In this document: piece after piece, positions 37,301 through 57,556 of the stretch
Numbering within the stretch: position 1 is the first letter of the stretch
How the letters are laid out: each line of letters opens with the position of its first letter
Origin: Nannocystis sp.
GTDB lineage: Bacteria; Myxococcota_A; Polyangia; Nannocystales; Nannocystaceae
Direction of reading: 5' to 3'
Assembly (NCBI RefSeq): GCF_016714285.1
Contig: NZ_JADJNN010000008.1
Coordinates: forward strand, 196,669 to 260,668
DNA: 64,000 nucleotides
The notes under the pieces: model-generated
The model's database searches: none
Seen by the model: the letters and a program-made list of their open reading frames with translations, nothing else
Told to the model about the DNA's origin: nothing
Program-made: the position numbers and the translations under genes

Positions 37301-38038
37301 AGCGGCTCCCGGACGGCCCCTTCTCCGACGCCGGCATCTCGTGGCCCGAGTGGAGCAGCGACGGCCACATCCTCACCAGCACCTGCCTGCGCAGCACCTT
37401 TACCTGCGTCGAGTGGCGGCTGTGGCGATGGGACCCGACCCATCCCGATCGGCCGCCCGAGCAGCCCCCTCCCGGCCCTCGCGGGCCAGATCGACGACTT
37501 CGACACCAGCCCCGACGGCCGCGCCCTCGTCGTCAGCGCCGGCGGGACTCTGGTCCGCTGGAGCCTCCCGGAGCTCCGTCCGCTCGCCGTCCAGCGCAGC
37601 GACGCCGCCTGGGGCGGCAGCCTGGCCCACGGCAAGGACGGCAGCTTCATCGCCGCCGCGGGCCAGTGCGGCGACCGCCCCGACTGCCCCGGTTCCGGCC
37701 TGCAGCTGCTCGACGCCGTGACCCTGCAGCCGATCGGCGCCCCGCAGGTGATCCGCGACGGCCCCTTCTTCCGCGTCCTCGCGGCCGGCCGCGATCACGT
37801 GCTCACCCGCTCGGACCTCAGCGTCGAGCTGTGGGACCTCCGCCTCGCGCAGCTGCAGCGCAGCGCCTGTGAGCTCGCCGCCCGCGAGCTCGCGCCGGAC
37901 GAGTGGCAGCGCCACCTCGGCGACCTGCCGTACCGGCCGATCTGCAGCGAGCTGGCCGCGGCCCGGGGGGGGGGGGGGGGGGGGATCGGGACCGCCCGGC
38001 CCGGATCGTGTCCGGACCGCCCCGCGTCGGGCCCGTGA
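34366..38038 (+). CDS. nSTAND-type P-loop NTPase (NPYVGPRAF...GRDRE...APSGAGKSSL) + helical domain + TM helix + coiled coil + C-terminal beta-propeller; frameshift near 37440-37470
   Basis: N-terminal Walker A; Walker B (ILDQFEE); hydrophobic segment FIAGLAVLACAGLVAASVAAV; repeated beta-strand-rich C-terminal units. The last about 190 aa (ending ...EWQRHLGDLPYRPIC...) are in the +1 frame (ORF 37718..38038). Confidence 0.6.
37965..37984. repeat. Homopolymer run of about 20 G inside the C-terminus of the NTPase gene
   Basis: gcccgggggggggggggggggggggatcggg read directly; it would encode Gly6-7. Confidence 0.9.
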
Positions 38039-38088
38039 TCGTGCTCCGCGGTTGACCGCCCCGGGTCCGCCCCTGCTACCGTGCCCGC

Positions 38089-39750
38089 GTGACCGAGAGC
38101 GCCCCGCAGACCATCACGCCGCGCGCCCTGATCGCCGGCTTCATCCTGGCGATGCTGCTGTGCGGCATGAACTCGTACCTCACGCTCTCCTTCGGCGTCA
38201 TCGAGGAGGGCCCGACGATCGCCGCGCTGTTCTTCTTCGCGATCTTCTTCGTCTCGAAGCTCCCGATCACCGTCACCGAGATGGTCATCGTCTCGACGAT
38301 GGGCTCGGCCGGCGGAAGCCTCGGCTTCATCTCCAACTTCTTCGCCGCCAAGGCCATGACCGGCGAGCCCTACAGCCTGTTCGAGATGGCCGCCTTCTCG
38401 ATCGTCTCGAGCCTGGTGGGCCTGATCATGGTGATCCCGCTGCGCCAGCTCCTGATCCTCCGCGAGAACCTGCCGTGGCCCGGATCGAAGGCGGTCGCCG
38501 GCGTCATCCGCGCCCTCGTCGAGGAGGGCGACCCGCGCCAGCCGAAGATCCTGCTGGCCGCCGGCCTCGCGCTCATCGTCTGGGTCATCGGCAACAAGGA
38601 CGGCGGGTACGGCTTCTTCCCGGTCGAGACGGCGCTCGGCGGGCTCGCGGCCTACGGCGGCGCGATCGCCTGGTCGCCCTTCGCGATCGGCGGCTCCTAC
38701 CTCATGGGCCTGCGCACCTGCGTCGGCTTCCTGGTCGGCGCGATCGCCCTCATGGTCATGGCCCCGCACCTGCCCGAGCCCGAGGCCCCGCACCGCTACT
38801 TCTGGCCCGGCCTCGGCTTCCTCGTCGCCTCGGGCCTGGTCAGCATCGGCCTCAACTGGCGCAGCTTTGTCGGCGCGTTCCAGTCGATGCTCGCGCTCGG
38901 CGAGAAGACCGACGACGACGACCCCGTGATGTCCGGCCGCACCCTCGGCGTCCTCGCCGTCCTCGCCTTCGCCACCGCCACGGTCGTCCTCAACCAGCTG
39001 TTCGACCTCTCGATCATCCTCGTGTTCGTGCTCATCGCGATCGGCGGCCTGATCCAGAACATCATCGCCACGCGCGCCGCCGCCCAGACCGCCTTCAACC
39101 CCGCGCGCGTGATGGGCATCCTGCTGCAGGGCGTCACCTCGGCCTTCGGCGGCAAGAGCATCGCCATGAACCTCACCGGCGCCGGCTTCGTCGCCGGCTC
39201 GGGCGCCCAGGCTGGCCTGCTCACCGGCGACATGGCCTACGGCCGCTGGTTCAAGGTGCCCTCGCGCTACCAGTTCTGGGCCCAGTGCCTCACCGTGCTG
39301 CCCTGCTCGATCGTCGCCGCCTTCGTGTTCCAGCAGATCCACGCCGCCAAGCCGCTGGTCCTCCAGGGCGAGGGCCACCCCGCGCCGGTCGCCAAGATGT
39401 GGGCCGCCAGCGCCCAGATCTTCGACGGCTCGCGCCCGCTGCCCGACGGCGTGTGGGACGCCCTGCTCATCGGCGGCGCGGTCGGTGTCGCCTACACCCT
39501 GATCGAGTGCATCAAGCCGATCGAGCGCTGGCTGCCGCACTCGATCGGCATCGGCCTCGGCCTGGTGCTCGCGCCCTCGCTCGGCATCTCCTTCTTCCTC
39601 GGCGGCTTCGTGATGTGGGTCGTCCTCGGCGGCTGGCTCAAGTGGAAGGACGTCACCCTCACCACCATCGCCGTCGCCTCGATCGTCGCCGAGGGCATCG
39701 GCGGCGTGCTCAAGCCGCTGCTCACGCTGATGGGCGTGAACCCGCAGTGA
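38089..39750 (+). CDS. OPT-family oligopeptide transporter
   Basis: 553 aa, about 15 TM segments. Conserved OPT blocks (NSYLTLSFG, FFPVETALGG, LIQNIIA). Confidence 0.8.
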   Translation: MTESAPQTITPRALIAGFILAMLLCGMNSYLTLSFGVIEEGPTIAALFFFAIFFVSKLPITVTEMVIVSTMGSAGGSLGFISNFFAAKAMTGEPYSLFEMAAFSIVSSLVGLIMVIPLRQLLILRENLPWPGSKAVAGVIRALVEEGDPRQPKILLAAGLALIVWVIGNKDGGYGFFPVETALGGLAAYGGAIAWSPFAIGGSYLMGLRTCVGFLVGAIALMVMAPHLPEPEAPHRYFWPGLGFLVASGLVSIGLNWRSFVGAFQSMLALGEKTDDDDPVMSGRTLGVLAVLAFATATVVLNQLFDLSIILVFVLIAIGGLIQNIIATRAAAQTAFNPARVMGILLQGVTSAFGGKSIAMNLTGAGFVAGSGAQAGLLTGDMAYGRWFKVPSRYQFWAQCLTVLPCSIVAAFVFQQIHAAKPLVLQGEGHPAPVAKMWAASAQIFDGSRPLPDGVWDALLIGGAVGVAYTLIECIKPIERWLPHSIGIGLGLVLAPSLGISFFLGGFVMWVVLGGWLKWKDVTLTTIAVASIVAEGIGGVLKPLLTLMGVNPQ

Positions 39751-39759
39751 GGCGGTCGG

Positions 39760-39828
39760 CCTGTCCCTTCGGACAGGTGCAGGCGCTCGCAGGGCGGGCA
39801 CGCCCTGGGCCTGTCCGAAAGGACAGGC
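39760..39828. terminator. Two adjacent hairpins of the CCTGTCC-N4-GGACAGG family (cctgtcccttcggacagg; gcctgtccgaaaggacaggc) between convergent genes
   Basis: Perfect 7-8 bp stems with 4-nt loops, between the OPT stop (39750) and the FNR stop (39844). Confidence 0.65.
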
Positions 39829-39843
39829 ACGAGTCCCCGCGCC

Positions 39844-40800
39844 TCACAGCGCGCTACGAGTCGCCGAGTGGGCCGCGTGGAACGCCGCCTTGAGCCCGGC
39901 CACGCGCGGCGCGTCCTCGAGGTCGATCGGCGGGATGGTGTCGTAGGCCTCGTAGAAGATCGTCGGCTTCAGGTCATCGGCGATCTCGAGGGCGCGGCGG
40001 ATCTTGCGGTTGTCGGGCACGAAGCCGCGGGGCACCAGCGACTCGATGCACTGGCCGATCGTCCCCTGCAAGCCGCAGATCAGGATCTGCACCGCGCTCG
40101 GCAGGAAGCCCCCGCGCGGCAGCCCGAGCAGGTCCTCGAGGCCGTCGATGCGCCCGGGCCCGAAGAAGCTCTCGGCGCGGCCGCTGTGGCCGCGCCAGTT
40201 CGGGTCCTGCTGGGGTCGGCTGACGGTCGGCAGGTAGTGCAGGCCGTGGTTGCGGACCAGCGCCTCGAGCTCGTCGCGGTAGCCGAGGTCGGCGCTGTAG
40301 CTGGCGCCGTGGATGATCACGTAGTCGGCCAGCGAGCGCCGCGGGTCCTGGTTGACCTCGCTGCGCACCATCGACAGGAACGGCGCAAGTCCGGTGCCCG
40401 CGGCCACGCACACCTTGATCCTGCGGTCGTCGATGCCGACGGTGTCGGGCACCGTGAACTTGCCGGTCGGGTGCACGCGCACGTACATGCGGTCGCCGGC
40501 CTTGCGGGTCCACAGCAGGTGCGTGAAGGGGTTGTCCGACTCGGGCCGCTCGACGTAGCGGATGTAGAACTCGACCAGGTCGCGGCGCTCCGGCGCCGAC
40601 GCGATCGACATCGGGCGGCGCACCCCGCCGAGCTCGACCTTCACCTCGTTGTTGAGCCCGAGGACCATGTACTGTCCGGGCACGAACCACGAGCCGGTGC
40701 CCGGCAGGGCCTCGTCGGGACGGATGCGAAACACACCCAGCGCGGATGTGAGGTCCTCACGCTCCACCAGCGTCGCGTTGTATTCGAGCGGCTTGGCCAT
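39844..40800 (-). CDS. fpr: Ferredoxin/flavodoxin-NADP+ reductase (Fpr-type FNR)
   Basis: 318 aa from MAKPLEYNAT. FAD-binding RPMSIAS, NAD(P)-binding GTGLAPF, C-terminal aromatic residues. Upstream ORF extension rejected. Confidence 0.75.
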   Translation of the reverse strand: MAKPLEYNATLVEREDLTSALGVFRIRPDEALPGTGSWFVPGQYMVLGLNNEVKVELGGVRRPMSIASAPERRDLVEFYIRYVERPESDNPFTHLLWTRKAGDRMYVRVHPTGKFTVPDTVGIDDRRIKVCVAAGTGLAPFLSMVRSEVNQDPRRSLADYVIIHGASYSADLGYRDELEALVRNHGLHYLPTVSRPQQDPNWRGHSGRAESFFGPGRIDGLEDLLGLPRGGFLPSAVQILICGLQGTIGQCIESLVPRGFVPDNRKIRRALEIADDLKPTIFYEAYDTIPPIDLEDAPRVAGLKAAFHAAHSATRSAL

Positions 40801-40923
40801 AGGCGCCGCATCATGCACCAGGGGCGCGCTCGTCGCCAGGCCCGTGAGGCGGCCCAGAGAGCCACGAAACGAAGTTACTAATGGTGGCATCTGGCCCAGG
40901 ATCGGGTTGGCGCGGCGCTTGCT

Positions 40924-41730
40924 GTGGGGGCGGCCCACACCATGTCTGCCGCCCTTGAAGCCCCGCGGATCCTCGCGGTCGATGACGACGCCGACGCCCT
41001 CTGCGAGCTCGTGCGGGCGCTCGAGGGCAGCGGCTGCGTCGTGCTCATCGCCCGCGACGCCGACGCCGGGCTGCGGCTGGCGATCGAGCAGGTGCCCGAC
41101 CTCATCGTCGCCAGCGTCGATCTGCCCGGCGTCGACGGCTGGGCCCTCGCCAAGCACGTGCGCAGCCGGCCGCGTCTGGCCCTGATCCCGTTCATCTTCC
41201 TCACCCGCGGCGACACCCACGAGGATCGCCTGCGCGGCTTCCAGCTCGGCGGCGACGACTTCGTGCGCAAGCCGCTGCGGGCCGCGGAGCTCGGCGCGCG
41301 CGTGCAGGGCTCGCTGCGTCGGCAGGCGCGCATCGTCGGCGCCGTCCAGCAACATCTGCGCGAGGTCTCGGCCCGGCCCGCCCCGGAGCCTGGTCGCCTC
41401 GGCATCGCCGGGACCCTCGAGCAGGTCGGCCTCCCGGCGCTGCTGACGATGCTGGAGCTCGAGCACAAGACCGGTGTCCTGACCCTGCTGCGCCGCGATC
41501 CGCCGCGCGAGGCTTGCCTGTACATCGTCGCGGGTCGGGTCCACGGCGCCCACCTCGCCGGACGTCAGCCGCTGCACCGCGCGGCCGCCGTCTACGAGCT
41601 GCTGCGCTGGGACAGCGGCCGCTTCGAGTTCGTCGCCCGGCCGGTCGCGCAAGTCGACGAGATCGGGCTCAGCACTGGCGAGCTCCTGCTCGAGGGGGCG
41701 CGCCGCATCGACGCCGACGTGCGCTGTTAG
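40924..41730 (+). CDS. Response regulator receiver fused to DUF4388 (PatA-like) domain
   Basis: ILAVDDD...D(L/V)PGVDG...KP receiver motifs, then a DUF4388-like block (LPALLTMLELEHKTGVLTL). Confidence 0.7.
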   Translation: MGAAHTMSAALEAPRILAVDDDADALCELVRALEGSGCVVLIARDADAGLRLAIEQVPDLIVASVDLPGVDGWALAKHVRSRPRLALIPFIFLTRGDTHEDRLRGFQLGGDDFVRKPLRAAELGARVQGSLRRQARIVGAVQQHLREVSARPAPEPGRLGIAGTLEQVGLPALLTMLELEHKTGVLTLLRRDPPREACLYIVAGRVHGAHLAGRQPLHRAAAVYELLRWDSGRFEFVARPVAQVDEIGLSTGELLLEGARRIDADVRC

Positions 41731-41747
41731 CTGTCCGCGGGGACAGC
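41730..41747. terminator. Hairpin gctgtccgcggggacagc (CCTGTCC/GGACAGG family) between convergent genes
   Basis: Directly follows the TAG of 40924..41730. Confidence 0.55.
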
Positions 41748-41787
41748 TGTCGCGGACGCCTGCCGGACGCGGGCCGCATGTGCCGCC

Positions 41788-42069
41788 TCACGGCCCGCCG
41801 GTCGTCTCGCCGTCGGTCGTCCGGGCGTCGGTGTCGACGCTGCATCGTCCGGTCCCGACCTCGAAGCTGGCCCACACGCCGGCCTCGCAGCGCAGCCCGT
41901 GGTACAGCCCGCAGCTGTCGCGCTCGGGCGCACAGACCTCGCCGTCCTGCGGGCACAGGCTGCCCTCCTCGGGCAACTCCTCGCACGCCTCCGTCGCCGG
42001 CGGCGACGCCTCGCAGGCGCCGTCGGCGAGCGCGACGGTCAGCAGCAACAGCGCGCGGTGCAGCCTCAC
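41788..42069 (-). CDS. Small secreted cysteine-rich protein (93 aa, 8 Cys)
   Basis: GTG start with AGGGA upstream; signal peptide LLLLTVALADGAC. Could be spurious. Confidence 0.35.
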   Translation of the reverse strand: MRLHRALLLLTVALADGACEASPPATEACEELPEEGSLCPQDGEVCAPERDSCGLYHGLRCEAGVWASFEVGTGRCSVDTDARTTDGETTGGP

Positions 42070-42196
42070 GCCGCATCCCTAGCAAAGCCAGTCGCGCTGT
42101 CGAATTTGTGGCGGCGGCGAGTGCCCACCCGGCCCGCGTGGATGTGCCACGGGTGACCTGAGGAGTGCCTGGCGAAGGACTGCGCGACGAGGCCGC

Positions 42197-45184
<2,988 letters not shown>

Positions 45185-45277
45185 GGGCGGGGCCGGGTTT
45201 TCCCACGGATCTCGGGTGGACGCCACCACCACGACCCCCCTTGCCGAGACGCGGCCGCGGGCTAACACTGGCCCGCC

Positions 45278-46291
45278 GTGAAGGACCTCTACTCCACCCT
45301 CGGCGTCGCCAAGACGGCGGACGCTTCCGAGATCAAGCGCTCGTATCGCAAGCTCACGCAGCAGTTTCACCCGGACAAGAACCCGGGCGACAAGCAGGCC
45401 GAGGACCGCTTCAAGGAGGTCTCGTCGGCCTACGAGGTGCTGAGCGACGCCGACAAGCGCAAGAACTATGACGAGTTCGGCGACATGAGCCTGACCCAGG
45501 GCTTCGACGTCGAGCGCGCCCGCGCCTACAAGAACGCGACCCGCGGCGGCGGCGGTGGTCGGCGCCCGCGCGGCGCTGGCGGCTTCCCGGGTGGTGGCGG
45601 CGGCGGCTTCGACGAGAGCATGTTCTCCAACATGGGCGACGCCCGCGGCACCTCCTTCGACGACCTGCTCTCGCAGCTGTTCGGCGGCGGTCGCGTCGTC
45701 GATCCCTTCGGCGCTGGCGCTGGCGCTGGCGGCGGGCGTGCGCGTGGACCGGTGAGCCGCCGCGGCCACGACATCGAGGGCGAGATCACGATCGACTTCA
45801 TGGACATGCTGCGCGGCAAGGTCGTGCCCCTGCGCATCGAGTCCGAGTCCGGCAACGGCCGCACCCTCGACGTCAAGGTCCCGCCCGGCATCGCCGACGG
45901 CGGCAAGCTGCGCATGCGCGGGCAGGGCGGGCAGGGCGACCCGAACGGCGACATCCTCCTCACCGTCAAGGTCGCGCCGCACCCTCGCCTCAAGCGCGAC
46001 GGCCAGCACCTTCTCCTCAGCCTCCCCGTCACCGCCCTCGAGGCCTACCGCGGCGGCCCCATCGACGTCCCGACCCCCGGCGGCACGGTCACCTTGAAGC
46101 TCAAGCCCGGCAGCCAGAACGGCCAGACCCTGCGCCTCAAGGGCAAGGGCATCGCCCCGGCCGGCCAGGAGCCCGGCGACCTGCTCGTCACCCTCGACCT
46201 GCGCCTGCCGCCGCCCGGCGACGCCGCCCTGCTCGCCGCGTTGGAGCAGCTCCAGGCCGACGAGGATCCGCGCGCTGACCTCGATCTGTAG
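45278..46291 (+). CDS. DnaJ-class co-chaperone (CbpA-like: J-domain, G/F-rich region, no zinc finger, C-terminal substrate-binding domains)
   Basis: J-domain with HPDKN; Gly/Phe-rich linker; CTD blocks. No CxxCxGxG repeats. Confidence 0.8.
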   Translation: MKDLYSTLGVAKTADASEIKRSYRKLTQQFHPDKNPGDKQAEDRFKEVSSAYEVLSDADKRKNYDEFGDMSLTQGFDVERARAYKNATRGGGGGRRPRGAGGFPGGGGGGFDESMFSNMGDARGTSFDDLLSQLFGGGRVVDPFGAGAGAGGGRARGPVSRRGHDIEGEITIDFMDMLRGKVVPLRIESESGNGRTLDVKVPPGIADGGKLRMRGQGGQGDPNGDILLTVKVAPHPRLKRDGQHLLLSLPVTALEAYRGGPIDVPTPGGTVTLKLKPGSQNGQTLRLKGKGIAPAGQEPGDLLVTLDLRLPPPGDAALLAALEQLQADEDPRADLDL

Positions 46292-46312
46292 ACCTGTCCG
46301 GAGGGACAGGTC
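46291..46312. terminator. Perfect 9-bp-stem hairpin gacctgtcc-ggag-ggacaggtc immediately after the dnaJ-like stop
   Basis: Canonical member of the CCTGTCC/GGACAGG palindrome family. Confidence 0.6.
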
Positions 46313-46345
46313 ACGTGGTCGCCGCAGCTCGGGACACCGTGCTAT

Positions 46346-47311
<966 letters not shown>

Positions 47312-47354
47312 GCCTGGGCGGCGGGGCCGGGCCTGGAGGTGGCCCGATACGAGT

Positions 47355-48095
47355 TGGGGGGCGCCCGGCAGGCTCGAGAAGCCGGAGGTCCGGGGGGGGG
47401 GGAAGCTGCCGCCCTCAGGGGGCCGCCGCAGGGGCGCCGGGGGGGGGGGGGGCCCCGGCCGGGCGGGGCGGGCCCCCCCGGCCCCCCGGGGGGGGGGGGG
47501 CCGCCCCCGGGGGGGGGGGGGGGGGGGGCCGCGGCGGGGGGGGGCGGCGCGGGGGGGGGGCCGCGGGGGGGGGGGGGGGGGAGGGGGCCCCGGGCGCCCG
47601 GGCCGGGGGGGGGGGGGGCGCGGGGGGGGGGGGGGGGGGGGCCCCGGCGGGGGGCCGCCGGGGGGGGCGGGGGGGGGCCCCGGGGGGGGCGCCCCGGGGG
47701 GGCGGGGGGGGGGCCCCGGGGGGGCCCCCCGGGGGGGGGGGGGGGGGGGCGCGGGGGCCCCGGGGGGGGGGGGGGCGGGGGCGGGGGCCCCCCGGGGGCG
47801 GGGCCCCGGGGGGGGGGGGGGGGGGCCCCCGGGGGGGCCCCCGGGGGGGGGGCCGGGGGGGCGGCGGGGGGGGCCCCCGGGGGGGGGGGCGGCGCGGGCC
47901 GGCGCCGCCCGGGGGGGGGCCGGGGGGGGCCCGGCCCGCGGCGGGGGCGGGGGGGGGGCGGGGGGGGGGCCGGGGGGGGGAGGGGGGGGCGCGGGGGGCG
48001 CCCGGGGCGGGGGCCGGGGGGGGCGCGGGGCCCGGGCGGGGCCGGGGGCCGGGGGGGGGGGGGCGGGGGGGGGCGGGGCGGGGGGGGGGGGGCCG
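47355..48095. repeat. About 740-bp G-rich low-complexity tract (G runs of 10-25 nt with sporadic C/A), intergenic between lipA and the phosphatase gene
   Basis: Read directly. Composition incompatible with normal coding; the plus-strand 'Gly-rich' and minus-strand 'Pro-rich' ORFs are translation of homopolymers. Confidence 0.9.
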
Positions 48096-48123
48096 GGTGC
48101 GACAACAGGCCAGAAGAGGCAGA

Positions 48124-48747
48124 TCAGGCCGTCGTGATCAGCCCGGCCGGCAGGTGGCCGGTGTCGTTGTAACTGATCAGGGCCTCGAAGCCCTCGGGGT
48201 AGACGCGCAGCTCGGTGATGCCGCAGTGGCAGCAGTCGAAGCGGCTCCAGGCCTCGTAGGGGAGGCGCAGGGTGCTCGTGACGAGGTAGCGGATCAGGTT
48301 GCCGTGGGTGAAGATGACGCAGAAGCTGGTCTGCTTGGGCGTGCGAAAGAAGCGCTCGCGGACGCGTTCGATCTGGCGGACGGTGACGGCGCGCTCCTCC
48401 GCGGTGGTGAAGGGCAGGCCGGGGTGGGCGCCGAACTCGGCGATCTTGTCGGCGTCGAGGAGGGGCAGGACCTCGTGCAGGTACGGCTTCACCTTGATGC
48501 GGTCGATGTTCAGCTCGTGCGCCGCGATCTCGGCCGTCTGCAGGGCGCGCGGCCAGGGGCTGGCGAACAGGCCCTCGAACTTGCCCTGCGCGGCCTCGAT
48601 GAGCTGGACCAGGCGGCGGCCGGTGCGGGCGGCCTGGCGGCGGCCGAGGGCGGTCAGGCCCCACACGGTGTCGCCCTGGTCGCCGATGCGCTCGTAGTGT
48701 CCGTGTCTGACGAGCAGGATCCGGCTGTAGACGACTTCGAGGCTCAT
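48124..48747 (-). CDS. Histidine phosphatase family protein (phosphoglycerate-mutase-like, SixA-like)
   Basis: RHG motif (LLVRHGH) and later catalytic His (FTHGN). ATG overlaps the stop of the upstream GIY-YIG gene. Confidence 0.7.
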   Translation of the reverse strand: MSLEVVYSRILLVRHGHYERIGDQGDTVWGLTALGRRQAARTGRRLVQLIEAAQGKFEGLFASPWPRALQTAEIAAHELNIDRIKVKPYLHEVLPLLDADKIAEFGAHPGLPFTTAEERAVTVRQIERVRERFFRTPKQTSFCVIFTHGNLIRYLVTSTLRLPYEAWSRFDCCHCGITELRVYPEGFEALISYNDTGHLPAGLITTA

Positions 48748-49097
48748 GGACGCGGAGGGTTGCTTGTAACACGACGGGCCCTGCTTGGGGTGGCCTGTGC
48801 GATCGATGCTGGCGGGGTGATCGCGGCGCGTCGGAGGCGGCGCCACAGGGCCAGGTCGCCGGCGATCAGGCGCTCCTTGTCGCAGCGGGGGAGGGCCTTG
48901 ATCGCCCGCTCGAGCTGACGGGCGGCACGTGGCGCCTGGCGGCCGCGCTTCCAGACGAGCACGAGCGGGCCGCGGCCGCGGGTGTACTTGGCCCCGGCGC
49001 CGCGGTTGTGCAGGGCGATGCGGGCCGCGAGGTCGCGGGCGATCCCGGTGTAGAGGCTGCCGTCGGCGCAGCGCAGGACGTAGACCGAGTAAGTCAC
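48744..49097 (-). CDS. GIY-YIG nuclease-family protein (UPF0213/YhbQ-like)
   Basis: YSVYVLRCADGSLYTGIARDL...R...HN motif. GTG start at 49097. Confidence 0.7.
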   Translation of the reverse strand: MTYSVYVLRCADGSLYTGIARDLAARIALHNRGAGAKYTRGRGPLVLVWKRGRQAPRAARQLERAIKALPRCDKERLIAGDLALWRRLRRAAITPPASIAQATPSRARRVTSNPPRP

Positions 49098-49169
49098 CGG
49101 GCGGGCCTGTCGTGGCGGCTGCCGTCGGCGCAGCGCAGCAGGTAGACCGAGCAGGTCACCGGGCGGCAC
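49060..49169. repeat. Tandem duplication (about 47 bp x2, 5 mismatches) of the 5' end of the GIY-YIG gene, creating a 21-codon upstream mini-ORF that ends in GTGA on the real start
   Basis: ggtgac(t/c)t(a/g)ctcggtctac(g/c)t(c/g)ctgcgctgcgccgacgg present at about 49060 and about 49123. Upstream copy translates VTCSVYLLRCADGSRHDRPAR*. Confidence 0.75.
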
Positions 49170-51207
49170 CGCCGTGGGTGGCGCCGCTGTGTTCGGCGAT
49201 CACCGCCAGCAGATCGGCGCCGTACTTCTCGGCCTTGGCCGGGCCGATCCCGTGGGCCAGGAGCAGCTGTTCACGCGAGCTCGGGCGCAGCAGCGCGAGG
49301 TCGCGCAGGCTGCGGTCGCTGGCGACGACGTAGGGCGGCACGCCGTCGCGGCCGGCGAGCTCCATGCGGCGGCCGCGGAGGCGCTGGAACAGGGCCAGGC
49401 CGGCGGCGTCGAGGGCCACCTCATCGCTGGTCTCGGCCGGGCCGCGGGTGGGCCTGGGCATCGACTTGCCGCTCGTGTGGGGCAGCATGCGGGTGACGCT
49501 GAGCGCGGGGAGCAGGAGGCGGGCCGGGGCCTCGCCCTTCATCACGCGGCGGCCGGCCTCGGTGAGGACCGCGAGGGGTTTGTCGTCGCCGGAGAACTCG
49601 ACCCAGCCGGCGACGATGCAGCGCCGGAGCAGGCGCATGAGCCAGGCGGGGTCGTACTCCTTGAGGCTGGCGAAGGTGGGGGTGTGGATCAGGCCGGAGC
49701 GCTCGAGGCGGTCGTCGGCGCGGCCGGCGAGGAGGTTGGCGGCCGCGGCGAGGCCGAAGCGGCGGTGCACGCGGGCGACCGCGCTGAGGGCCTTGCGGAC
49801 GATGAGGGTGACGGTCGCGGGGTCGGCTGTCCCGCGGGCCAGGTCGAGACAGACGTCGCAGCGGCCGCAGCCGCCGAGCGCCTCGCCCTCGTCGCCGAAG
49901 TAGCGGAGGATCGCGTCGTGGCGGCACGAGCCGCCCTCGGCCCAGCGCATGAGCTCGAGGAAGAGGTTCCACTTGTGCTCGACGACGGCGGGCTGGGGCG
50001 GGCTGTCCTCGCTGCCGCGCTCGATGAGGCGCCGGCGCAGCGGCATGTCGCCGGGGGCGATGAGCATGAGGGCGTGGGCGTCGGCGCCGTCGCGACCGGC
50101 GCGGCCGACCTCCTGGTAGTAGGCCTCGAGCGAGCTCGGCGGGGCCAGGTGGATCACGGCGCGCACGTCGGCGCGATCGATGCCCATGCCGAAGGCGTTG
50201 GTGGCGACGACGACGTCGAGCTGGCTGAGCATGAACTGCTCCTGCGCCCGCTCGCGGACCTGGGGCTCGAGGCCGGCGTGGTAGGCCTTGCAGCGCCAGC
50301 CCTGGCCGGCCAGGCGGGCCTGCTCCTGCTCGGCGGACTTGCGGGTCGGGGCGTAGACGATCGCCGTTCCAGAGACGAGGCTGCGGCTGAGGGTCTTGCT
50401 GGGGCCGCGGCCGAGTGCTTGCGCGAGCAATTGATCGACGGCGTGGTCGCGGCTGCGGCGGTCGTCGTCCTCGCGGACCTGGAGGGCGAGGTTGGGGCGG
50501 GCGAAGCCCTGGATCAGCTGCGGGGTGTCGCTGTGGAGGCCGAGGCGGGCGAGGATCTCGTCGCGGACGATCGGCGTGGCGGTGGCGGTGCAGGCGAGCA
50601 CGCGGGCGTGGGCGTGCTCGCGCACCAGCTCGCCGATCTGCAGGTACTCGGGGCGGAAGTCGTGGCCCCACTCGCTGATGCAGTGGGCCTCGTCGATGGC
50701 GAGCAGGGGGACGTGGATCTTGCGCAGGATCTCGCGGAAGGCGGGCGAGCCGAGGCGCTCGGGGGCGGCGTAGATCAGCTTGTACTGGCCGCGGGCGAGG
50801 CCGGAGAGGCGGGCGCTGATCTCGTGGCCGGGCAGGGTGCTGGCGAGGAAGGTCGCCGCGACGCCGCGGGCTTGCAGGGCCTGGACCTGGTCGGCCATCA
50901 GGGCGATCAGCGGCGAGAGCACCACGGTGGTGCCCGGCAGCAGCAGCGCCGGGAGCTGAAAGCTGAGGCTCTTGCCGCCGCCGGTCGGGGCGATCAGCAG
51001 CAGGCGGCCGGCGTTCAGGAGGGTGGTGATCGCCTCGCGCTGGCCGGGGCGGAAGCTCTCGAGGCCGAGCTGGCGCAGGGCGGCCTCGAGGTCGAAGCCG
51101 TGATCATGATCGAGGCCATGATCGAGGCCATGATCGAGGCCGTGATCGAGGCCGTGATCGAGGGCTCGAACATCCGCGTCGACGTCCATGTCGGCTGGGG
51201 CGCTCAC
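49156..51207 (-). CDS. recQ: ATP-dependent DNA helicase RecQ (helicase, RQC, HRDC domains)
   Basis: DEAH box (DEAHCISEWGHDFR), Zn-binding Cys cluster, HRDC at the C-terminus. N-terminus carries (DHGL)n encoded by a 15-bp repeat. Confidence 0.9.
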   Translation of the reverse strand: MSAPADMDVDADVRALDHGLDHGLDHGLDHGLDHDHGFDLEAALRQLGLESFRPGQREAITTLLNAGRLLLIAPTGGGKSLSFQLPALLLPGTTVVLSPLIALMADQVQALQARGVAATFLASTLPGHEISARLSGLARGQYKLIYAAPERLGSPAFREILRKIHVPLLAIDEAHCISEWGHDFRPEYLQIGELVREHAHARVLACTATATPIVRDEILARLGLHSDTPQLIQGFARPNLALQVREDDDRRSRDHAVDQLLAQALGRGPSKTLSRSLVSGTAIVYAPTRKSAEQEQARLAGQGWRCKAYHAGLEPQVRERAQEQFMLSQLDVVVATNAFGMGIDRADVRAVIHLAPPSSLEAYYQEVGRAGRDGADAHALMLIAPGDMPLRRRLIERGSEDSPPQPAVVEHKWNLFLELMRWAEGGSCRHDAILRYFGDEGEALGGCGRCDVCLDLARGTADPATVTLIVRKALSAVARVHRRFGLAAAANLLAGRADDRLERSGLIHTPTFASLKEYDPAWLMRLLRRCIVAGWVEFSGDDKPLAVLTEAGRRVMKGEAPARLLLPALSVTRMLPHTSGKSMPRPTRGPAETSDEVALDAAGLALFQRLRGRRMELAGRDGVPPYVVASDRSLRDLALLRPSSREQLLLAHGIGPAKAEKYGADLLAVIAEHSGATHGGAAR

Positions 51208-51273
51208 AGGCGGCGAGGATGATCTGCGGCGTGCTCGCGCGCAAGTGGCGGATCGCAGATCACGGCGATGCGA

Positions 51274-53325
51274 TCAGGGCGCGGGCTTCGGGGTGCTGCG
51301 GGCGAGCTGGAATTCGAGGCGCAGGCGGCCGTCGACGATGTCGGCGGCGAGCCGGGCGGAGCGACCGGTGAGCCAGCCCTGGGCGAAGTTCAGCTCGCGC
51401 TGGGCGTCGTCGATGGTCGCGAACAGCTGCCAGAGATCGGGGAGCTCGAGGTAGAAGGCGGGCAGCACCGCGGCGCTGCGCTCCAGCCCGAGCATCCACG
51501 ATAGGCGGTCGTTGCTGTCGGCGACCATGGCCCAGCCGGCCTCGATGTCGCGATCGCCGGCGCGGACGGTGCCGGGGTCGGTCATGAGGTAGAGCGAGGC
51601 GGGGACCTCGGCGTCGGGGATCTGGGCCTGTTCGACCTTGCCGGTGATCTGCGGCAGCGTGACCGGCGAGAAGCGGACCCCGCCGAGGCCCATCAGCGAG
51701 CGCAGCAGCGCGAGGTCCTGACCTTGCAGGCGCATGTAGCCGATGAAGTCGCCGCTCGGGTTGCCGCGCTGGATGTGGAGGCTGCGCAGGCTGCCGCCGA
51801 GGCCCTCGATGCGGCCGACGGCCTCGAGCGCCTGGCCGAGCATGACGGTCTCCATGCGGCCGCCCTGCTGCTTGGGCCAGCGCTGGGCGGCGCCGAAGAA
51901 GTTGGGCCAGGTCTCGAGGAAGAGGACCAGCGCGCCCCACTCGTCGGCGCGGTTGATCGTGTCCATGAGCTCGCGCTCGGGCTTGGCGTAGAGGCCGGCG
52001 GCCAGCTCGTCGAAGCCCGACAGCGCCGGGAAGCCGGCGGTGCGCAGGCAGGCGAGGCTGCCGTCGCACAGGCCGGAGATCGTCGGCACGCTGGCGGCGG
52101 CGGGGCTGCGCGTGAGCAGGCGGGTCAGCGTCTCGCGGGCCGCGTCGTCGCGCGGCTCCCACTGGAAGGTGGCCTGCAGGGTGTCGCCGTCGACGACGAC
52201 CTCGAGGCGGGCGCCGGAGAACAGGCGTCGGGTCTCGCGCAGACTGCTGAGCGCCGCGGCCTCGGCGAGCGAGGACTGCACGCCCTCGGTGTACCAGCGC
52301 TGGCGGCCCACGGCCTCGGCGACCGACATGACCTCCTGGACCGGCGGCAAGGCGTCGGCGTCGGCGTAGACGACGAAGTCGCCGCGCAGGGTGCTGAGCG
52401 GGGCGAGCGAGGCGATCGGCGCGGACAGGGCCTGCTGGACCACGGCCAGGCGCTCGGGGTCGAAGGCGGCGCCGGTGCCGGCCTCGAAGGTGAAGAAGTC
52501 GATCGCGACAGCGCCGTCGGCGGCGCGGATGAGCAGGAGCTCGCGGCTTCCGCCGGTGCACAGCTCACTCGGGCCGAGCTGGCCGCACAGGCTGTCGGTC
52601 TCGGGGGAGCGGTTCTTGCCGGCGAGGCGGCGCAGCGGCGCGAGCATCAGGCCGAGGTCCTTCACGGGCACGTGGACCCGCGAGTGCGTGCCGAGAGCGC
52701 CGGCGCGGCGGGCCAGCTCGCCCTGATCCGCCGTCGGCTTGGTGATCAGCGGCGGGGGGGGCGGCGGTGGTTGTTGAAAGATCGGGCTCGGCAGGGGCTC
52801 GATCTGCGGCGGGGTGATCGGCGGCGGCTGCATGCGATCGTAGTCGCGGGGGCCGGGGCCGACGTCGGAGGGCGTGATGCCGGGGAAGGGGTCGGGCGGG
52901 AGGTTGGTGCCGCGTTGCAGCAGGGCCCGCACACCGGCCGCGTCGCCGAGCGGGCGCATCAGGGTGGCGGTGATCACGGCGTCGGGGTCGAGGCCGAGGC
53001 GGGCGGCGACGTCGTCGACGCGCGGGTCGAAGCCGAGTTCGTTGCCGGCGCGGGCGAGGTCGCGGACGACGTCGGGGCCGAGCGGGAGCGCCTGCAGCCA
53101 CCGCTGCGCCTTGCCCGGGCGCAGGCCGATGTAGACGAGGCCGCCGGCGAGGAAGCCCGGCGCGGCGCCGAGATCGGCGGCGGGCAGCGGCGGGATCCGG
53201 GCCTGGATGGCCGCGAGCGCCGGGTCGTCGCTGCCACCCACACCGCTGCCCGACTTGCAGGCCGACAGCGCGAGGGTCAGGGCGGCGAGGCCACACAGCG
53301 ACGACGAGACGGATGGGCGTGACAC
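51274..53325 (-). CDS. Hypothetical lipoprotein (683 aa)
   Basis: Signal/lipobox LALSAC; Pro-rich linker; no known domain recognised. Confidence 0.5.
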   Translation of the reverse strand: MSRPSVSSSLCGLAALTLALSACKSGSGVGGSDDPALAAIQARIPPLPAADLGAAPGFLAGGLVYIGLRPGKAQRWLQALPLGPDVVRDLARAGNELGFDPRVDDVAARLGLDPDAVITATLMRPLGDAAGVRALLQRGTNLPPDPFPGITPSDVGPGPRDYDRMQPPPITPPQIEPLPSPIFQQPPPPPPPLITKPTADQGELARRAGALGTHSRVHVPVKDLGLMLAPLRRLAGKNRSPETDSLCGQLGPSELCTGGSRELLLIRAADGAVAIDFFTFEAGTGAAFDPERLAVVQQALSAPIASLAPLSTLRGDFVVYADADALPPVQEVMSVAEAVGRQRWYTEGVQSSLAEAAALSSLRETRRLFSGARLEVVVDGDTLQATFQWEPRDDAARETLTRLLTRSPAAASVPTISGLCDGSLACLRTAGFPALSGFDELAAGLYAKPERELMDTINRADEWGALVLFLETWPNFFGAAQRWPKQQGGRMETVMLGQALEAVGRIEGLGGSLRSLHIQRGNPSGDFIGYMRLQGQDLALLRSLMGLGGVRFSPVTLPQITGKVEQAQIPDAEVPASLYLMTDPGTVRAGDRDIEAGWAMVADSNDRLSWMLGLERSAAVLPAFYLELPDLWQLFATIDDAQRELNFAQGWLTGRSARLAADIVDGRLRLEFQLARSTPKPAP

Positions 53326-53456
53326 GGCCGCGAGTATGCCACGCGGCGTCCGCCCGCGGGCCGTGGCGTGGGCGCGCTCCGAGGCGTTCCAGGAGCGCGC
53401 GGGCCTGCGCCCGTCCTGGCCCCGCGAGGGCGCCGGTGATCGTGTAGGGTGGGCCC

Positions 53457-54965
53457 ATGGTTTGCGGGACGACAGGGCGCGTGGGTCGCTCGCTCGCGCT
53501 GCTCCTCGCCTGCGCGCCGGCCTGCGCCGGCGGGGCCGGCCTGGGCGACGAGACGGCGGCGGAGCAGACGAGCGGGAGCGGCGGTCAGGCTGCGAGCACG
53601 AGCGCGAGCGGCGATGTGCCGACGGGCCCGGGCGACACGACCACCGGCGATCCGGGCACGAGCACCGGCGACGTGTCGACGGGCACCGGCGACACCGGCG
53701 ACGAGACGGGGGGCAGCAGCGGTGACGCGACCACCACCGGCGCCGACGAGCCCCACCCCGAGCTCTACCCGACCGACCGCACGCACTCGCCGATCAGCGC
53801 CTACGTGGCCGATCACCTGCGCGAGATAGCGATGGCGCCGGCCGGGGTCGACAAGAACGCCGCGGTGTTCGCCAAGATCGGCGGCACGAGCACGGCCAAC
53901 GCCGACTACATGCAGTGCTTCCAGAGCGACGCGGCGATCAAGGACCTGCCGGTCGAGCTGATGCCGGCGCTGACCCACTTCCGCTCGGTCGACCTCGGCA
54001 TGGGCGTGACGGACTTCGATCGCGTGAGCCTGGCGGCGACCGTCGGGGTCACCTCGACCGGGCTCGTGGCGGGCGCGCCGACGCCGATCAACGCCGAGGT
54101 CGAGGCGATCAAGCCGCGCTTCGCTCACCTGCTGGTCGGAAGTCACGACCTCGAGAAGGACCAGCCGGCCGAGCTCTACACCTTCGCCGATAACCTGCTC
54201 GGGGCCGTCGACGCGCTGCTGATCAACGGGGTCGTGCCGATCATGTCGACGATCCCGCAGCGCCAGGACCTCGGGCTCAAGGACGCTTATGTGCCGCGCT
54301 ACAACGCGGTGATCCGCGCGGTCGCGCAGGGCCGCCAGATCCCGCTGGTCGACCTGAACCGCGAGCTGGCGCCGCTGCCGAACCTCGGCGCGACCGACGG
54401 CGGCGGCCTGACCGTGTTCGTGTCGGCGAACCTCGATCGCCCGTGCCACTTCTCGGAGTCGGCGCTGATGTACGGCTACAACGTGCGCAACCTCGAGGAC
54501 CTGCGGGCGCTCGACCGCGTGAAGCAGGTGGTGGTGGACGCGGTCGCCGAGCTCGACCCTGCCAGCCCGGGGCTCGCGGGCGCGGGCACGCCGGAGAAGC
54601 CGTACCTGATCCCGTCGCTGCCCTTCGTCGATCTGCGCAGCACCGCCGACAGCCCGAGCGACAGCTTCGACAGCTACATGGGCGCGTGCGACGGCGCCAA
54701 GGACGAGAGCGGTCCCGAGCGCGTGTATCGCTTCGAGGCGCCCGACGACATCAATCTTCGGGTCATGGTCTTCGACCGCGGCATGGTCGACGTCGACGTG
54801 CAGGTGCTCAAGGACGCCGCGCCGGAGACCTGCCTGCAGCGCAACGACAAGGAGATCGCCGGACCGCTGCCGTCCGGGACCTACCACGTGGTGGTCGACA
54901 GCTACGCCGGCAACGTGCCGAAGGGCGCGTCCGGCGAGTACATGCTGGTGGTGATGGCAGAGTGA
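53457..54965 (+). CDS. Secreted lipoprotein with Gly/Thr/Asp-rich linker and C-terminal pre-peptidase (PPC)-like beta-sandwich domain
   Basis: Lipobox LLLACAPAC. C-terminal block YRFEAPDD...GTYHVVVDSYAG...GEYMLVV resembles PPC domains. Confidence 0.5.
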   Translation: MVCGTTGRVGRSLALLLACAPACAGGAGLGDETAAEQTSGSGGQAASTSASGDVPTGPGDTTTGDPGTSTGDVSTGTGDTGDETGGSSGDATTTGADEPHPELYPTDRTHSPISAYVADHLREIAMAPAGVDKNAAVFAKIGGTSTANADYMQCFQSDAAIKDLPVELMPALTHFRSVDLGMGVTDFDRVSLAATVGVTSTGLVAGAPTPINAEVEAIKPRFAHLLVGSHDLEKDQPAELYTFADNLLGAVDALLINGVVPIMSTIPQRQDLGLKDAYVPRYNAVIRAVAQGRQIPLVDLNRELAPLPNLGATDGGGLTVFVSANLDRPCHFSESALMYGYNVRNLEDLRALDRVKQVVVDAVAELDPASPGLAGAGTPEKPYLIPSLPFVDLRSTADSPSDSFDSYMGACDGAKDESGPERVYRFEAPDDINLRVMVFDRGMVDVDVQVLKDAAPETCLQRNDKEIAGPLPSGTYHVVVDSYAGNVPKGASGEYMLVVMAE

Positions 54966-54991
54966 CAAGCTGATATGCTGGCCTGGCGACC

Positions 54992-56414
54992 ATGAAGCAA
55001 CCGCAGGATGAGATGGTGTGGATCGACCACAACGGCGTCGCGCACCCGCTCGGCGAGGTGGCGACGGCCCGGATGGGCCAGCGCGAGGGGGCCTATCGGA
55101 TGCTGCCCACGCCGGGCCACGTGGTGTTGCTGCGCTTCACCGGCAACGACGGTCGGCGCGACCTCGAGGACGGTCCGATCGTGCGGATGGCCGGTGAGAT
55201 CACGGCCAGCGGCGACATGGCCGACGTGCTCGCGGTGCTCGGGCACATCGGCACGCGCGGCGAGCTGGTGGTGATGGATGGCGAGGTCACGCGCAGCGTG
55301 TTCTTCGAGCACGGCAACATCGTCGGCGTGCAGACCAACGCGGAGGACGAGCGCATCGGCATGCTCCTCTACAAGTACGGGGTGCTCAGCGAGGAGCAGA
55401 TCCTCCCGGTGCTCGAGCGGGCCCGCAAGGGCGACCTGTTCGGCATGGCCGCGGTCGAGCTCGGCCTGGTCTCGCAGGATGTCATCTACAAGTATCTGGC
55501 GCGCCAGGTCGAGGAGGTGGTGTTCGCGGTGCTCGCCGCGGCCGACGGCGCGTACTGCTTCCTCGACGGCTTCGACGAGGCGCGCCTGGCCTCGCGGCAG
55601 GTCGTCAGCGCGACCGCGCTGCTGATGAATCACCTCACGCGAATCGACGAGATCCGGCATCTTCGGCCCTGGATCCCGTCGGCGGAGTACGTGCCGCTGC
55701 GCCTGGCGCCGCGCTCGGCGGTGGCCAGCGAGCAGGCGGTGGTGTGGGACGCGATCGACGGCATCAGCAGCGTCGGCGACATCGGCCGCGGCACCGGGCT
55801 CGGCGAGTTCGAGGTGACCAAGCAGCTGTTTCACCTGAGCCAGGCCCAGCTGGTGGCGATCCATCCGCCGAAGCTGCGCGGCGGGATCGGTGAGGTCGTC
55901 GAGCTGGCCAACGCCGGTCTGCGGGCGATCCACCAGGCCGCCGACGCGGGCGGGCGCGGCACGGCGCTGCGCAACAACCTCATCGCCTTCTCCCGCGGCG
56001 ACTACGAGGCGCTGCTGCGCGGCGCCGGGCCCTTCGAGCACGGGGGCTTCGGCGCGCCCGCGCTCGTGGTCAACAGCGCGGGCCTCCGCCCCGCCTCCGA
56101 GGTCGAGACCTTCGTGCGCGAGATGCTCTACGACTACGTGTCCTTCGCGCTGTTCAGCGCGACGGCCTCGCTGGCCAACACCACGTTGTCGGCCGAGGTC
56201 GAGCCGCTGCTGGCCCGGCTGCGCCCGCTCGGTCAGTCGGGGCGCTATCTGGTCGGGCGTCGCCAGCCAGGTGGTCCCGGTGGCGGCGGTTCGGGGGTGG
56301 CTTCGGTGGGGCCGGGGCGTCTGGGTCGGGCGTTCGCTCGAGCGAGGACTCGGACCCGGGCGGGGCGGGCTCGTCGGGCTCGGGCGGGGCGGACTCGTCG
56401 GGCGCGGCGCTCTG
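54992..56414 (+). CDS. DUF4388-domain protein; C-terminal Gly/Ser tail reached through an apparent +2 frameshift near 56280
   Basis: N-terminal DUF4388-like region. The uninterrupted ORF runs on into an Arg-rich junk linker, while the +2 frame gives a plausible G/S-rich tail ending at TGA 56412-14. Confidence 0.45.
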
Positions 56415-56431
56415 ACGTATCCTCGCGGGCG

Positions 56432-57556
56432 ATGCCGGTCGACGACCCCCACGACCCCGCGGCGCCGACGACCCGCAAGCAGGTGTTCCCCTGCGGCCAG
56501 TGCGGATCGTCGCTGGAGTTCAAGCCGGGCAGCGACAGCATGCGCTGCCCGCATTGTGGGCACACCCAGGCGCTGCCCGGCGGCGCGGGCGGGGTGATCA
56601 GCGAGCACGACTTCCACGAGGGCATCGCTCGCGCGCGCCGCCAGCCGAGCGCCGCGCTCGTCGAGGGCGGCCACAACGTGCAGTGCGAGGGCTGCGGCGC
56701 GCAGACGGTGGTCGCCGGTCAGGCCGCGCGCTGCCCCTTCTGCGGCTCGCCGGTGGTGATGGCGATCCAGGAGCTCGGCGAGATCTTCACGCCCGAGAGC
56801 CTGCTGCCGTTCAAGCTCGACGCGCGCGCGGCCAAGGACCGCTATCAGAAGTGGGTCGGCGGCCTGTGGTTCGCGCCGAACGACCTCAAGACGCTGGCCA
56901 ATCAGCACGGCATGGACGGCGTGTACATGCCGTACTGGTCGTACGATTCGAACACCACCACCCGCTACACCGGCGAGCGCGGCGAGTACTACTACGTCAG
57001 CGAGACCTACCGCGACAGCAAGGGCGAGACGCAGACCCGCCAGGTCCGCCACACCCGCTGGTACCCGACCTCGGGCACCGTGCACGTGAGCTTCGACGAC
57101 GTGCTGGTGTGCGGCTCGCAGACCCTGCCGCGCAAGCTGCTCGAGGGGCTGGAGCCGTGGGACCTGCCGGAGCTGCGGGCCTTCGACGCCGGCTACCTCA
57201 GCGGCTTCGTCGCCGAGCGCTACAAGATCGGGCTGGAGGAGGGCTTCGTCGCCGCCGAGGCGCGCATGGTCCCGAAGATCCGCAGCGCGGTCGAGTCGGA
57301 CATCGGCGGCGACGATCAGCGGATCGGCAACCTCAACATCCATCACGCCGATGTCCGCTTCAAGCACCTGCTGCTGCCGCTGTGGATCTCGAGCTTTCGC
57401 TACAAGGAGAAGGCCTACCGCTTCACCGTCAACGCCCGCAGCGGGCAGGTCTCGGGCGAGCGGCCGTGGAGCGTGGTGAAGATCGTGCTGGCGGTGCTGG
57501 CGGTGATCGCGGTGATCGTGACGATCGCGGTGCTGGTCCAGAAGTACAAGCAGTAG
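56432..57556 (+). CDS. Zinc-ribbon protein (two CxxC...CxxC pairs) with C-terminal TM anchor
   Basis: FPCGQCGSS...RCPHCGH and QCEGCGA...RCPFCGSP motifs; terminal hydrophobic helix IVLAVLAVIAVIVTIAVLV. Confidence 0.5.
   Translation: MPVDDPHDPAAPTTRKQVFPCGQCGSSLEFKPGSDSMRCPHCGHTQALPGGAGGVISEHDFHEGIARARRQPSAALVEGGHNVQCEGCGAQTVVAGQAARCPFCGSPVVMAIQELGEIFTPESLLPFKLDARAAKDRYQKWVGGLWFAPNDLKTLANQHGMDGVYMPYWSYDSNTTTRYTGERGEYYYVSETYRDSKGETQTRQVRHTRWYPTSGTVHVSFDDVLVCGSQTLPRKLLEGLEPWDLPELRAFDAGYLSGFVAERYKIGLEEGFVAAEARMVPKIRSAVESDIGGDDQRIGNLNIHHADVRFKHLLLPLWISSFRYKEKAYRFTVNARSGQVSGERPWSVVKIVLAVLAVIAVIVTIAVLVQKYKQ

Follow-up and report, generated by a model that had tools for sequence, protein, structure and literature searches.

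Real contingency tracts are single runs of ~8–20 nt that lie within a gene or immediately upstream of it and occupy a conserved position among strains. Classic poly-G read tails consist of pure G and are at most one read long. We know of no description of a long-read consensus failure that yielded sequence composed only of G and C. In two-colour Illumina chemistry, signal loss is read as G, which generates poly-G reads (PMC13218037; PMC13465854).

The stretch of DNA analysed here (the window; 64,000 nucleotides) contains a G-rich tract of ~740 bp that resembles each of these systems in part. Like poly-G contingency and G-quadruplex (G4) loci, the tract is built from G runs and occupies an intergenic or gene-proximal position, but it comprises dozens of runs over 740 bp, lies downstream of both neighbouring genes and is absent from the orthologous site in relatives. 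Like the poly-G artefact of two-colour Illumina instruments (NextSeq/NovaSeq), the tract displays long G runs without a biological counterpart and a left edge at which real sequence decays into G in the 5'-to-3' direction, and short G-rich mosaics are likewise found near contig ends in three of five matching public contigs. In contrast to that artefact, the tract is not pure G and is far longer than one read (740 bp, 26% C and C runs of up to 7 nt), and it is located inside a contig of at least 64 kb with correctly joined flanks. The features in common with long-read consensus or polishing failure are the coincidence of both G-run sites of the window with tandem arrays in a sister genome, collapsed repeats (105 bp at 47312–47355 and nine deletions at 37969–38015) and two 1-bp homopolymer frameshifts elsewhere in the window, whereas the G bias of the tract is not explained by such a failure alone. 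Overall, the tract resembles an established class of technical artefact that combines poly-G or low-complexity filler with garbled consensus repeats. Judged from sequence comparison, the tract is very probably an assembly or consensus error and not genomic sequence of the organism (probability of about 0.93).

Composition and reading frames of the tract

The tract is positioned between the 3' ends of the convergent lipA and histidine-phosphatase genes. Its existence was reported in the initial annotation and is borne out by the base counts at 47355–48095 (532 G, 193 C, 11 A and 5 T; 72% G and 26% C). By composition count, the G+C content of 47356–48096 is ~99%, compared with a background of 72.5%, and 100-bp windows with at least 92% G+C are observed at 47381–48116 only within the 64-kb window. 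Past position 47430, the tract contains no T, and A is found only at 47582 and 47981. The internal structure departs from the first description, which listed G runs of 10–25 nt interrupted by single C or A residues. The longest G run has 20 nt, 18 runs reach at least 10 nt and the median run is far shorter. C residues are organized in runs of up to 7 nt (GGGGCCCCGGGG motifs), and the tract is thus a mosaic of G runs and C runs; the junction sequence in the window is GAGGTCCGGGGGGGGGGGGAAGCTGCC. The original label of a poly-G artefact is apt insofar as a G-rich artefact is concerned but too simple for such a mosaic. No significant repeat period was detected in an autocorrelation of the C positions (best lag z = 2.5 among 300 lags). 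The composition of the tract is beyond chance and is therefore non-random, yet its biological nature is not thereby established.

The flanking genes are as first described, and lipA is intact. The 321-aa LipA product is identical to that encoded on a wastewater contig (locus L001), and a 314-aa version is identical in the metagenome-assembled genome (MAG) GCA_016717175.1; among the matches listed, LipA is 86–87% identical to Nannocystis genomes, so that the organism can be regarded as Nannocystaceae-like. The exact 207-aa phosphatase product is encoded on 14 public contigs, one of them JADKFZ010000004.1 (915 kb) of GCA_016717175.1.

Several reading frames are open across the tract and could be taken as a sign that the tract encodes a real low-complexity protein, either Gly/Arg/Pro-rich on the plus strand or Pro-rich on the minus strand, as a 275-aa open reading frame (ORF) or as part of a 2191-aa ORF. 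A sequence without A or T, however, cannot hold a stop codon, so that open frames in the tract are uninformative. The C frequency is flat (0.24–0.26) at all three codon positions in all frames, neither the Gly-rich nor the Pro-rich ORF matches a Pfam family, and both ORFs are missing in relatives, in which the 995-aa radical-SAM gene is the annotated product. The position of the tract between the 3' ends of convergent genes also argues against coding. A protein encoded by the tract has next to no probability, and the initial annotation was right both in finding no coding periodicity and in treating the Gly-rich and Pro-rich ORFs as homopolymer translations.

The 2191-aa ORF (42197–48772, minus strand) shares its stop codon with the genuine radical-SAM gene, which is 99.6% identical over 995 aa to the annotated gene of GCA_016717175.1. 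The corresponding mechanical ORF in the sister contig JADKFZ010000004.1 already comprises 1,782 aa, and the stop-free tract therefore adds only ~409 codons. The ORF is long even without the tract because no stop codon interrupts the frame antisense to dnaJ and lipA, and antisense frames commonly stay open at 72% G+C. The tract is not the main cause of the inflation of this ORF. The earlier proposal that the tract inflated it holds for the ~409 added codons, but the remainder is accounted for by the radical-SAM gene and the open antisense frame.

The lipA–phosphatase spacer in related genomes

The closest public genome is GCA_016717175.1, a Nannocystaceae-like MAG whose contig JADKFZ010000004.1 (loci L082 and L092) was used as the sister sequence. 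Over the 20 kb compared, this contig is 98.98% identical to window positions 36405–47353 and 99.37% identical to positions 48097–57074; the comparison genomes represent a different strain or population that is ~0.7–1% divergent from the window. The gene order of the window and that of the sister contig are identical on both flanks, and the difference is confined to 47353–48097. A chimeric mis-join at the tract was rejected, as synteny with the sister contig holds on either side.

In the sister contig, the spacer consists of 1,060 bp of ordinary sequence (L092 10946–12005, equal to L082 5625–6684) that is orthologous to window positions 47312–48123. Its unaligned 1,001 bp, which stand in place of the 743-bp tract, contain 119 A, 331 C, 385 G and 166 T. 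The spacer carries three direct copies of a ~27-bp motif (GGCCCGATACGAGCTCCGTCGCACGGG); a fourth copy, in inverted orientation, is located at its far end. Imperfect inverted-repeat arms, composed of several colinear arm pairs that are 78–92% complementary, enclose 7.7 (about eight) tandem copies of a 37-bp unit (GCAGCTGTCCGCGGGGACATGTCGCGTGTTTCCCGAG), each of which contains the small palindromes TGTCC-N4-GGACA, GACATGTC and CAGCTG. Folding of the spacer as single-stranded DNA gives a ΔG of −425.5 kcal/mol, compared with −255.8 ± 5.0 kcal/mol for shuffled sequences (z = −33.8), and predicts one giant hairpin. Rfam searches of the true spacer and the tract returned sub-threshold chance matches only. 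No other copy of the true spacer is present within the window, and its 37-bp unit is absent from the window even when three mismatches are allowed.

Independent short-read contigs from other datasets contain parts of this spacer. L001 (ENA ERZ965210, wastewater) proceeds from an identical lipA gene through the three direct repeats into the left arm, where the contig ends. L084, another contig from the study of L001, starts in the right arm. L085 (ERZ27280344) runs from the left arm across the 37-bp array, where the core of the unit is present in four exact copies, into the right arm. Five Logan contigs from 92–94% identical strains (L083 and L086–L089) end within the right arm. These repeated breaks of short-read contigs in the arms indicate that the lipA–phosphatase spacer is hard to assemble. 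The site of the tract thus coincides with intrinsically difficult sequence, formed by the inverted-repeat arms and the 37-bp array, and a true spacer that is repeat-rich, folds into a hairpin and is hard to sequence, map and assemble argues for an error.

In a further Logan contig (L090, SRR35242012) from a 92%-identical strain, another convergent gene is located 14 bp past the phosphatase gene (L090 1150–1687). This gene encodes 174 aa, is cut by the contig end and aligns to neither the window nor the lipA spacer, which indicates that conservation of the neighbourhood does not extend to more distant strains.

The G/C tract is absent from every related assembly compared, and G and C runs in related loci (961 kb in total) reach 8 nt at most. 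Other near-identical assemblies consequently differ from the window at this site while the flanks agree, and the ordinary, A/T-containing repeats of the 99%-identical sister and the independent short-read contigs, together with the limit of 8 nt on G and C runs in relatives, argue that the tract is an error. The initial annotation favoured an artefact over a G4 island and proposed that independent sequencing might collapse the tract; the nearest equivalent of that check, the comparison with other assemblies, revealed a repeat-rich, A/T-containing spacer and sustains the preference.

If the tract were real, a 740-bp G/C island (99% G+C) would have replaced the palindromic repeat element in this strain and would form many G-quadruplexes on the plus strand between the convergent genes. 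The deposited sequence does include the tract, which has 13 non-overlapping canonical G4 motifs compared with 25 in the other 63 kb of the window, and the comparison assemblies, at 99.0–99.4% identity, do not represent the identical strain. The motif definition of four runs of at least three G with short loops is satisfied by the tract, but any G-rich junk satisfies it trivially. The absence of the tract and of any long G or C run from the related assemblies stands against a genuine island, as do a left border that degrades gradually without a junction and a second G run in the contig, at which a tandem repeat is replaced and a stop codon lost. Moreover, 18 G runs of at least 10 nt would be expected to be extremely unstable in replication, owing to homopolymer slippage and G4 replication blocks, and we know of no bacterial locus with such an array of G runs. 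A genuine island is accordingly very improbable.

Borders of the tract

The two borders of the tract differ in character (Table 1). On the left side, a collapsed remnant of the spacer, defined by alignment to L082/L092 and L001, directly follows lipA, and window positions 47328–47355 match L001 1560–1587 exactly (28 of 28 positions). The window agrees with the sister sequence up to 47353/47392. In the adjoining transition zone, GCAGGCTCGAGAAGCCGGAGGTCCG is an exact 25-mer of the true left inverted-repeat arm; past this 25-mer, GAGAGGGGGGTCGCCCTCAAACACGGCC of the relatives appears as GGGGGGGGGGGGAAGCTGCCGCCCTCAGGGGGCC in the window, and the fragments CGCCCTCA and CGCCGGGG remain recognizable until ~47440. 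A and T residues are lost stepwise; the final T lies at 47415, and the final A ahead of the core at 47430. Local alignment of 47354–47480 with the true spacer scored 42.5, compared with 16.6 ± 2.5 for run-shuffled controls. On the right side, the border is abrupt, and exact identity returns at 48097, with 27 bp left to the stop codon of the phosphatase gene. The gradual 5'-to-3' decay into G on the left is the picture given by base calls that deteriorate or a consensus that fails, not by an insertion or replacement junction, and the combination of a gradual left edge and an abrupt right edge argues for an error.

Table 1. Features of the tract, its surroundings and the second G-run site (window coordinates).
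Feature	Position	Strand	Remarks
Second probable artefact, G20	37965–37984		Replaces ~4 tandem copies of a 36–39-bp repeat (GCGGCCCCGTGATCGTGATCCGCGGTGGACCGCCCCGCG)
Genuine radical-SAM gene, 995 aa	42197–45184	−	Radical_SAM_N2/Radical_SAM/DUF2344
lipA (lipoyl synthase), intact, left flank	46346–47311	+	Pfam Radical_SAM and LIAS_N
Pro-rich ORF, 275 aa	47278–48105	−	
Collapsed spacer remnant	47312–47355		One of three ~27-bp direct repeats (GGCCCGATACGAG...) kept; ~105 bp missing
Gly-rich (Gly/Arg/Pro-rich) ORF, 277 aa	47339–48172	+	
Transition zone	47356–47430		Left-arm pieces (GCAGGCTCGAGAAGCCGGAGGTCCG exact, CGCCCTCA, CGCCGGGG) amid growing G runs
Core G/C-only tract	47431–48096		No Rfam match, no periodicity, no collinear homology; probable artefactual filler
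Genuine spacer end, last 27 bp	48097–48123		BLAST HSPs of L082, L084, L085 and L092 start at 48097
Histidine phosphatase, 207 aa from ATG, right flank	48124–48747	−	Pfam His_Phos_1, E = 2.5e-20

On another reading, the core would be a corrupted position-by-position copy of the true array, in which A and T were recoded as G by the loss of a signal channel. Global alignment of the A/T-to-G-recoded true spacer with the core surpasses run-shuffled controls (z = 7.8), and TRF reports a weak period of 36, close to the true 37. The alignment score of 321, however, falls within the range of circularly shifted sequences (306.8 ± 6.8; maximum 322.5), and unrelated genomic segments score up to 325.5. With the circular-shift and unrelated-segment controls, no homology of the core to the true spacer was detectable, and the residual signal over run-shuffled controls (z = 6–8) vanished. 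The candidate periodicity of ~37 bp was rejected as well, given that the C-position autocorrelation has no peak at 36–37. An A-to-C/T-to-G recoding fits worse than A/T-to-G, an A-to-G/T-to-C recoding is no better, and none of the recodings survives the controls. True sequence is recognizable only in the first ~75 bp. A masked copy of the array has only a very remote chance of being correct, even more so than a genuine island.

Other probable consensus errors and a proposed origin of the filler

The sole other long homopolymer in the 64-kb window, a G20 run, also coincides with a tandem array of the sister contig. In L092, the intact array (1553–1726) starts at the stop codon of a 1,200-aa nSTAND1/WD40-type gene. 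In the window, this stop codon is lost at the G20 run; the protein alignment ends at 37963 and the ORF runs to 38038. The G20 run is followed by nine small deletions at 37969–38015 (to ~38020), such that the first repeat copies are replaced and the next copies bear deletions. That this second G run also replaces a tandem array argues that the tract is an error.

Single-base differences in homopolymers affect two genes. At 37469, the window has C5 where the sister has C4, and the resulting frameshift lies ~165 codons before the end of the nSTAND1/WD40-type gene; the extra C is probably a homopolymer consensus error rather than the mark of a pseudogene. At 56290, the window has T2 where the sister has T3, and the frameshift fuses a PatA_N-domain gene, in whose Gly-rich C-terminal tail it lies, to the next ORF (HypA/zinc-finger-like, starting MPVDDPHD). 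The two 1-bp frameshifts are typical of residual long-read consensus errors. With the G20 run and these frameshifts, the type of error recurs in the window, and the two frameshifts likewise argue that the tract is an error. Taken together, these differences suggest that the consensus was derived from long reads and that it is reliable in unique sequence but poor at repeats and homopolymers.

Elsewhere, the window differs from the sister by substitutions and by one in-frame 12-bp repeat unit. The 12-bp tandem repeat (CATGATCGAGGC) at 51105–51163 has 4.9 copies in the window and 3.9 in the sister contig, which changes the protein in frame by 4 aa near the N-terminus of a RecQ-family helicase (683 vs 679 aa) and looks like genuine strain-level variation. 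Among the 91 substitutions between window positions 36405–57074 and L092, 45 are C-to-G or G-to-C transversions. A share of one-half is generally uncommon, yet it would be plausible at third codon positions of a genome with 72% G+C, with the codon positions pooled in this count. Outside the two G-run sites, the substitutions show no significant excess of G (39 vs 27), and C/G exchanges in both directions dominate. Tracing of G-biased polishing through the substitution spectrum outside the tract was dropped on this basis.

A route to the tract can be proposed for an assembly or consensus error. The true ~1-kb spacer, with its direct repeats, arms and 37-bp units, would fold as a giant hairpin and hamper sequencing and assembly. 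The long-read draft consensus would be poor at the repeats. Low-quality reads with G as the default call might then be taken in when the draft was polished or the graph traversed, and, where mapped in reverse, these reads would contribute C runs, giving a G/C-only filler of roughly the right length. In this way, the repeat part of the spacer would be exchanged for 740 bp of stop-free G-run and C-run filler, while the flanks and the gene order are kept right. This specific route, a poor draft followed by the use of G-default reads in polishing or graph traversal, is tentative and merits a chance of at most about one third. It is not a full account of the 740-bp mosaic, which greatly exceeds a short read in length and in which C makes up 26% in runs and G is in strong excess on one strand only.

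As to the sequencing behind the assembly, 1,080 MAGs from activated sludge that have nearby accession numbers are reported to be 'population bins' derived from Nanopore and Illumina data (PMC9765116). From the accession range, GCA_016717175.1 or the window may be part of this MAG set.

Comparable sequence is found in public data on a smaller scale. Unrelated IMG/VR viral contigs contain mosaics of a G run, CCCC and a G run over 60–95 bp, and three of the five matches are located within ~90 bp of a contig end. The mosaics lie at L093 8240–8290, L094 11548–11642, L095 8287–8347 and L097 4220–4265; that of L094 is internal to a 64.9-kb contig, and that of L095 is inside a 42-kb contig. The fifth match (L096 638–660) lies in a C-rich repeat region, which may be genuine sequence. 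The IMG/VR mosaics look like smaller-scale junk of the same kind as the tract and fit a recurrent technical origin.

The main significance of the tract lies in quality control. Annotation of the contig will call spurious Gly-rich and Pro-rich proteins and an inflated ORF at the tract and will fail to place the nSTAND1/WD40-type stop codon at 37965, and scans of public MAGs for G-quadruplexes or composition would flag the locus as extraordinary. G/C-only filler can occur within otherwise accurate and correctly joined long contigs, exactly at tandem or palindromic repeats, and G/C-only tracts thus mark places at which real repeat elements were lost. If the tract were real in one strain, it would far exceed any bacterial locus reported so far in G-quadruplex-forming density. 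The true palindromic element is the likelier novelty than a genuine tract, though a weaker one and outside the window: this ~1-kb element with its central 37-bp array may represent an undescribed myxobacterial repeat, mobile element, regulatory element or protein-binding array.
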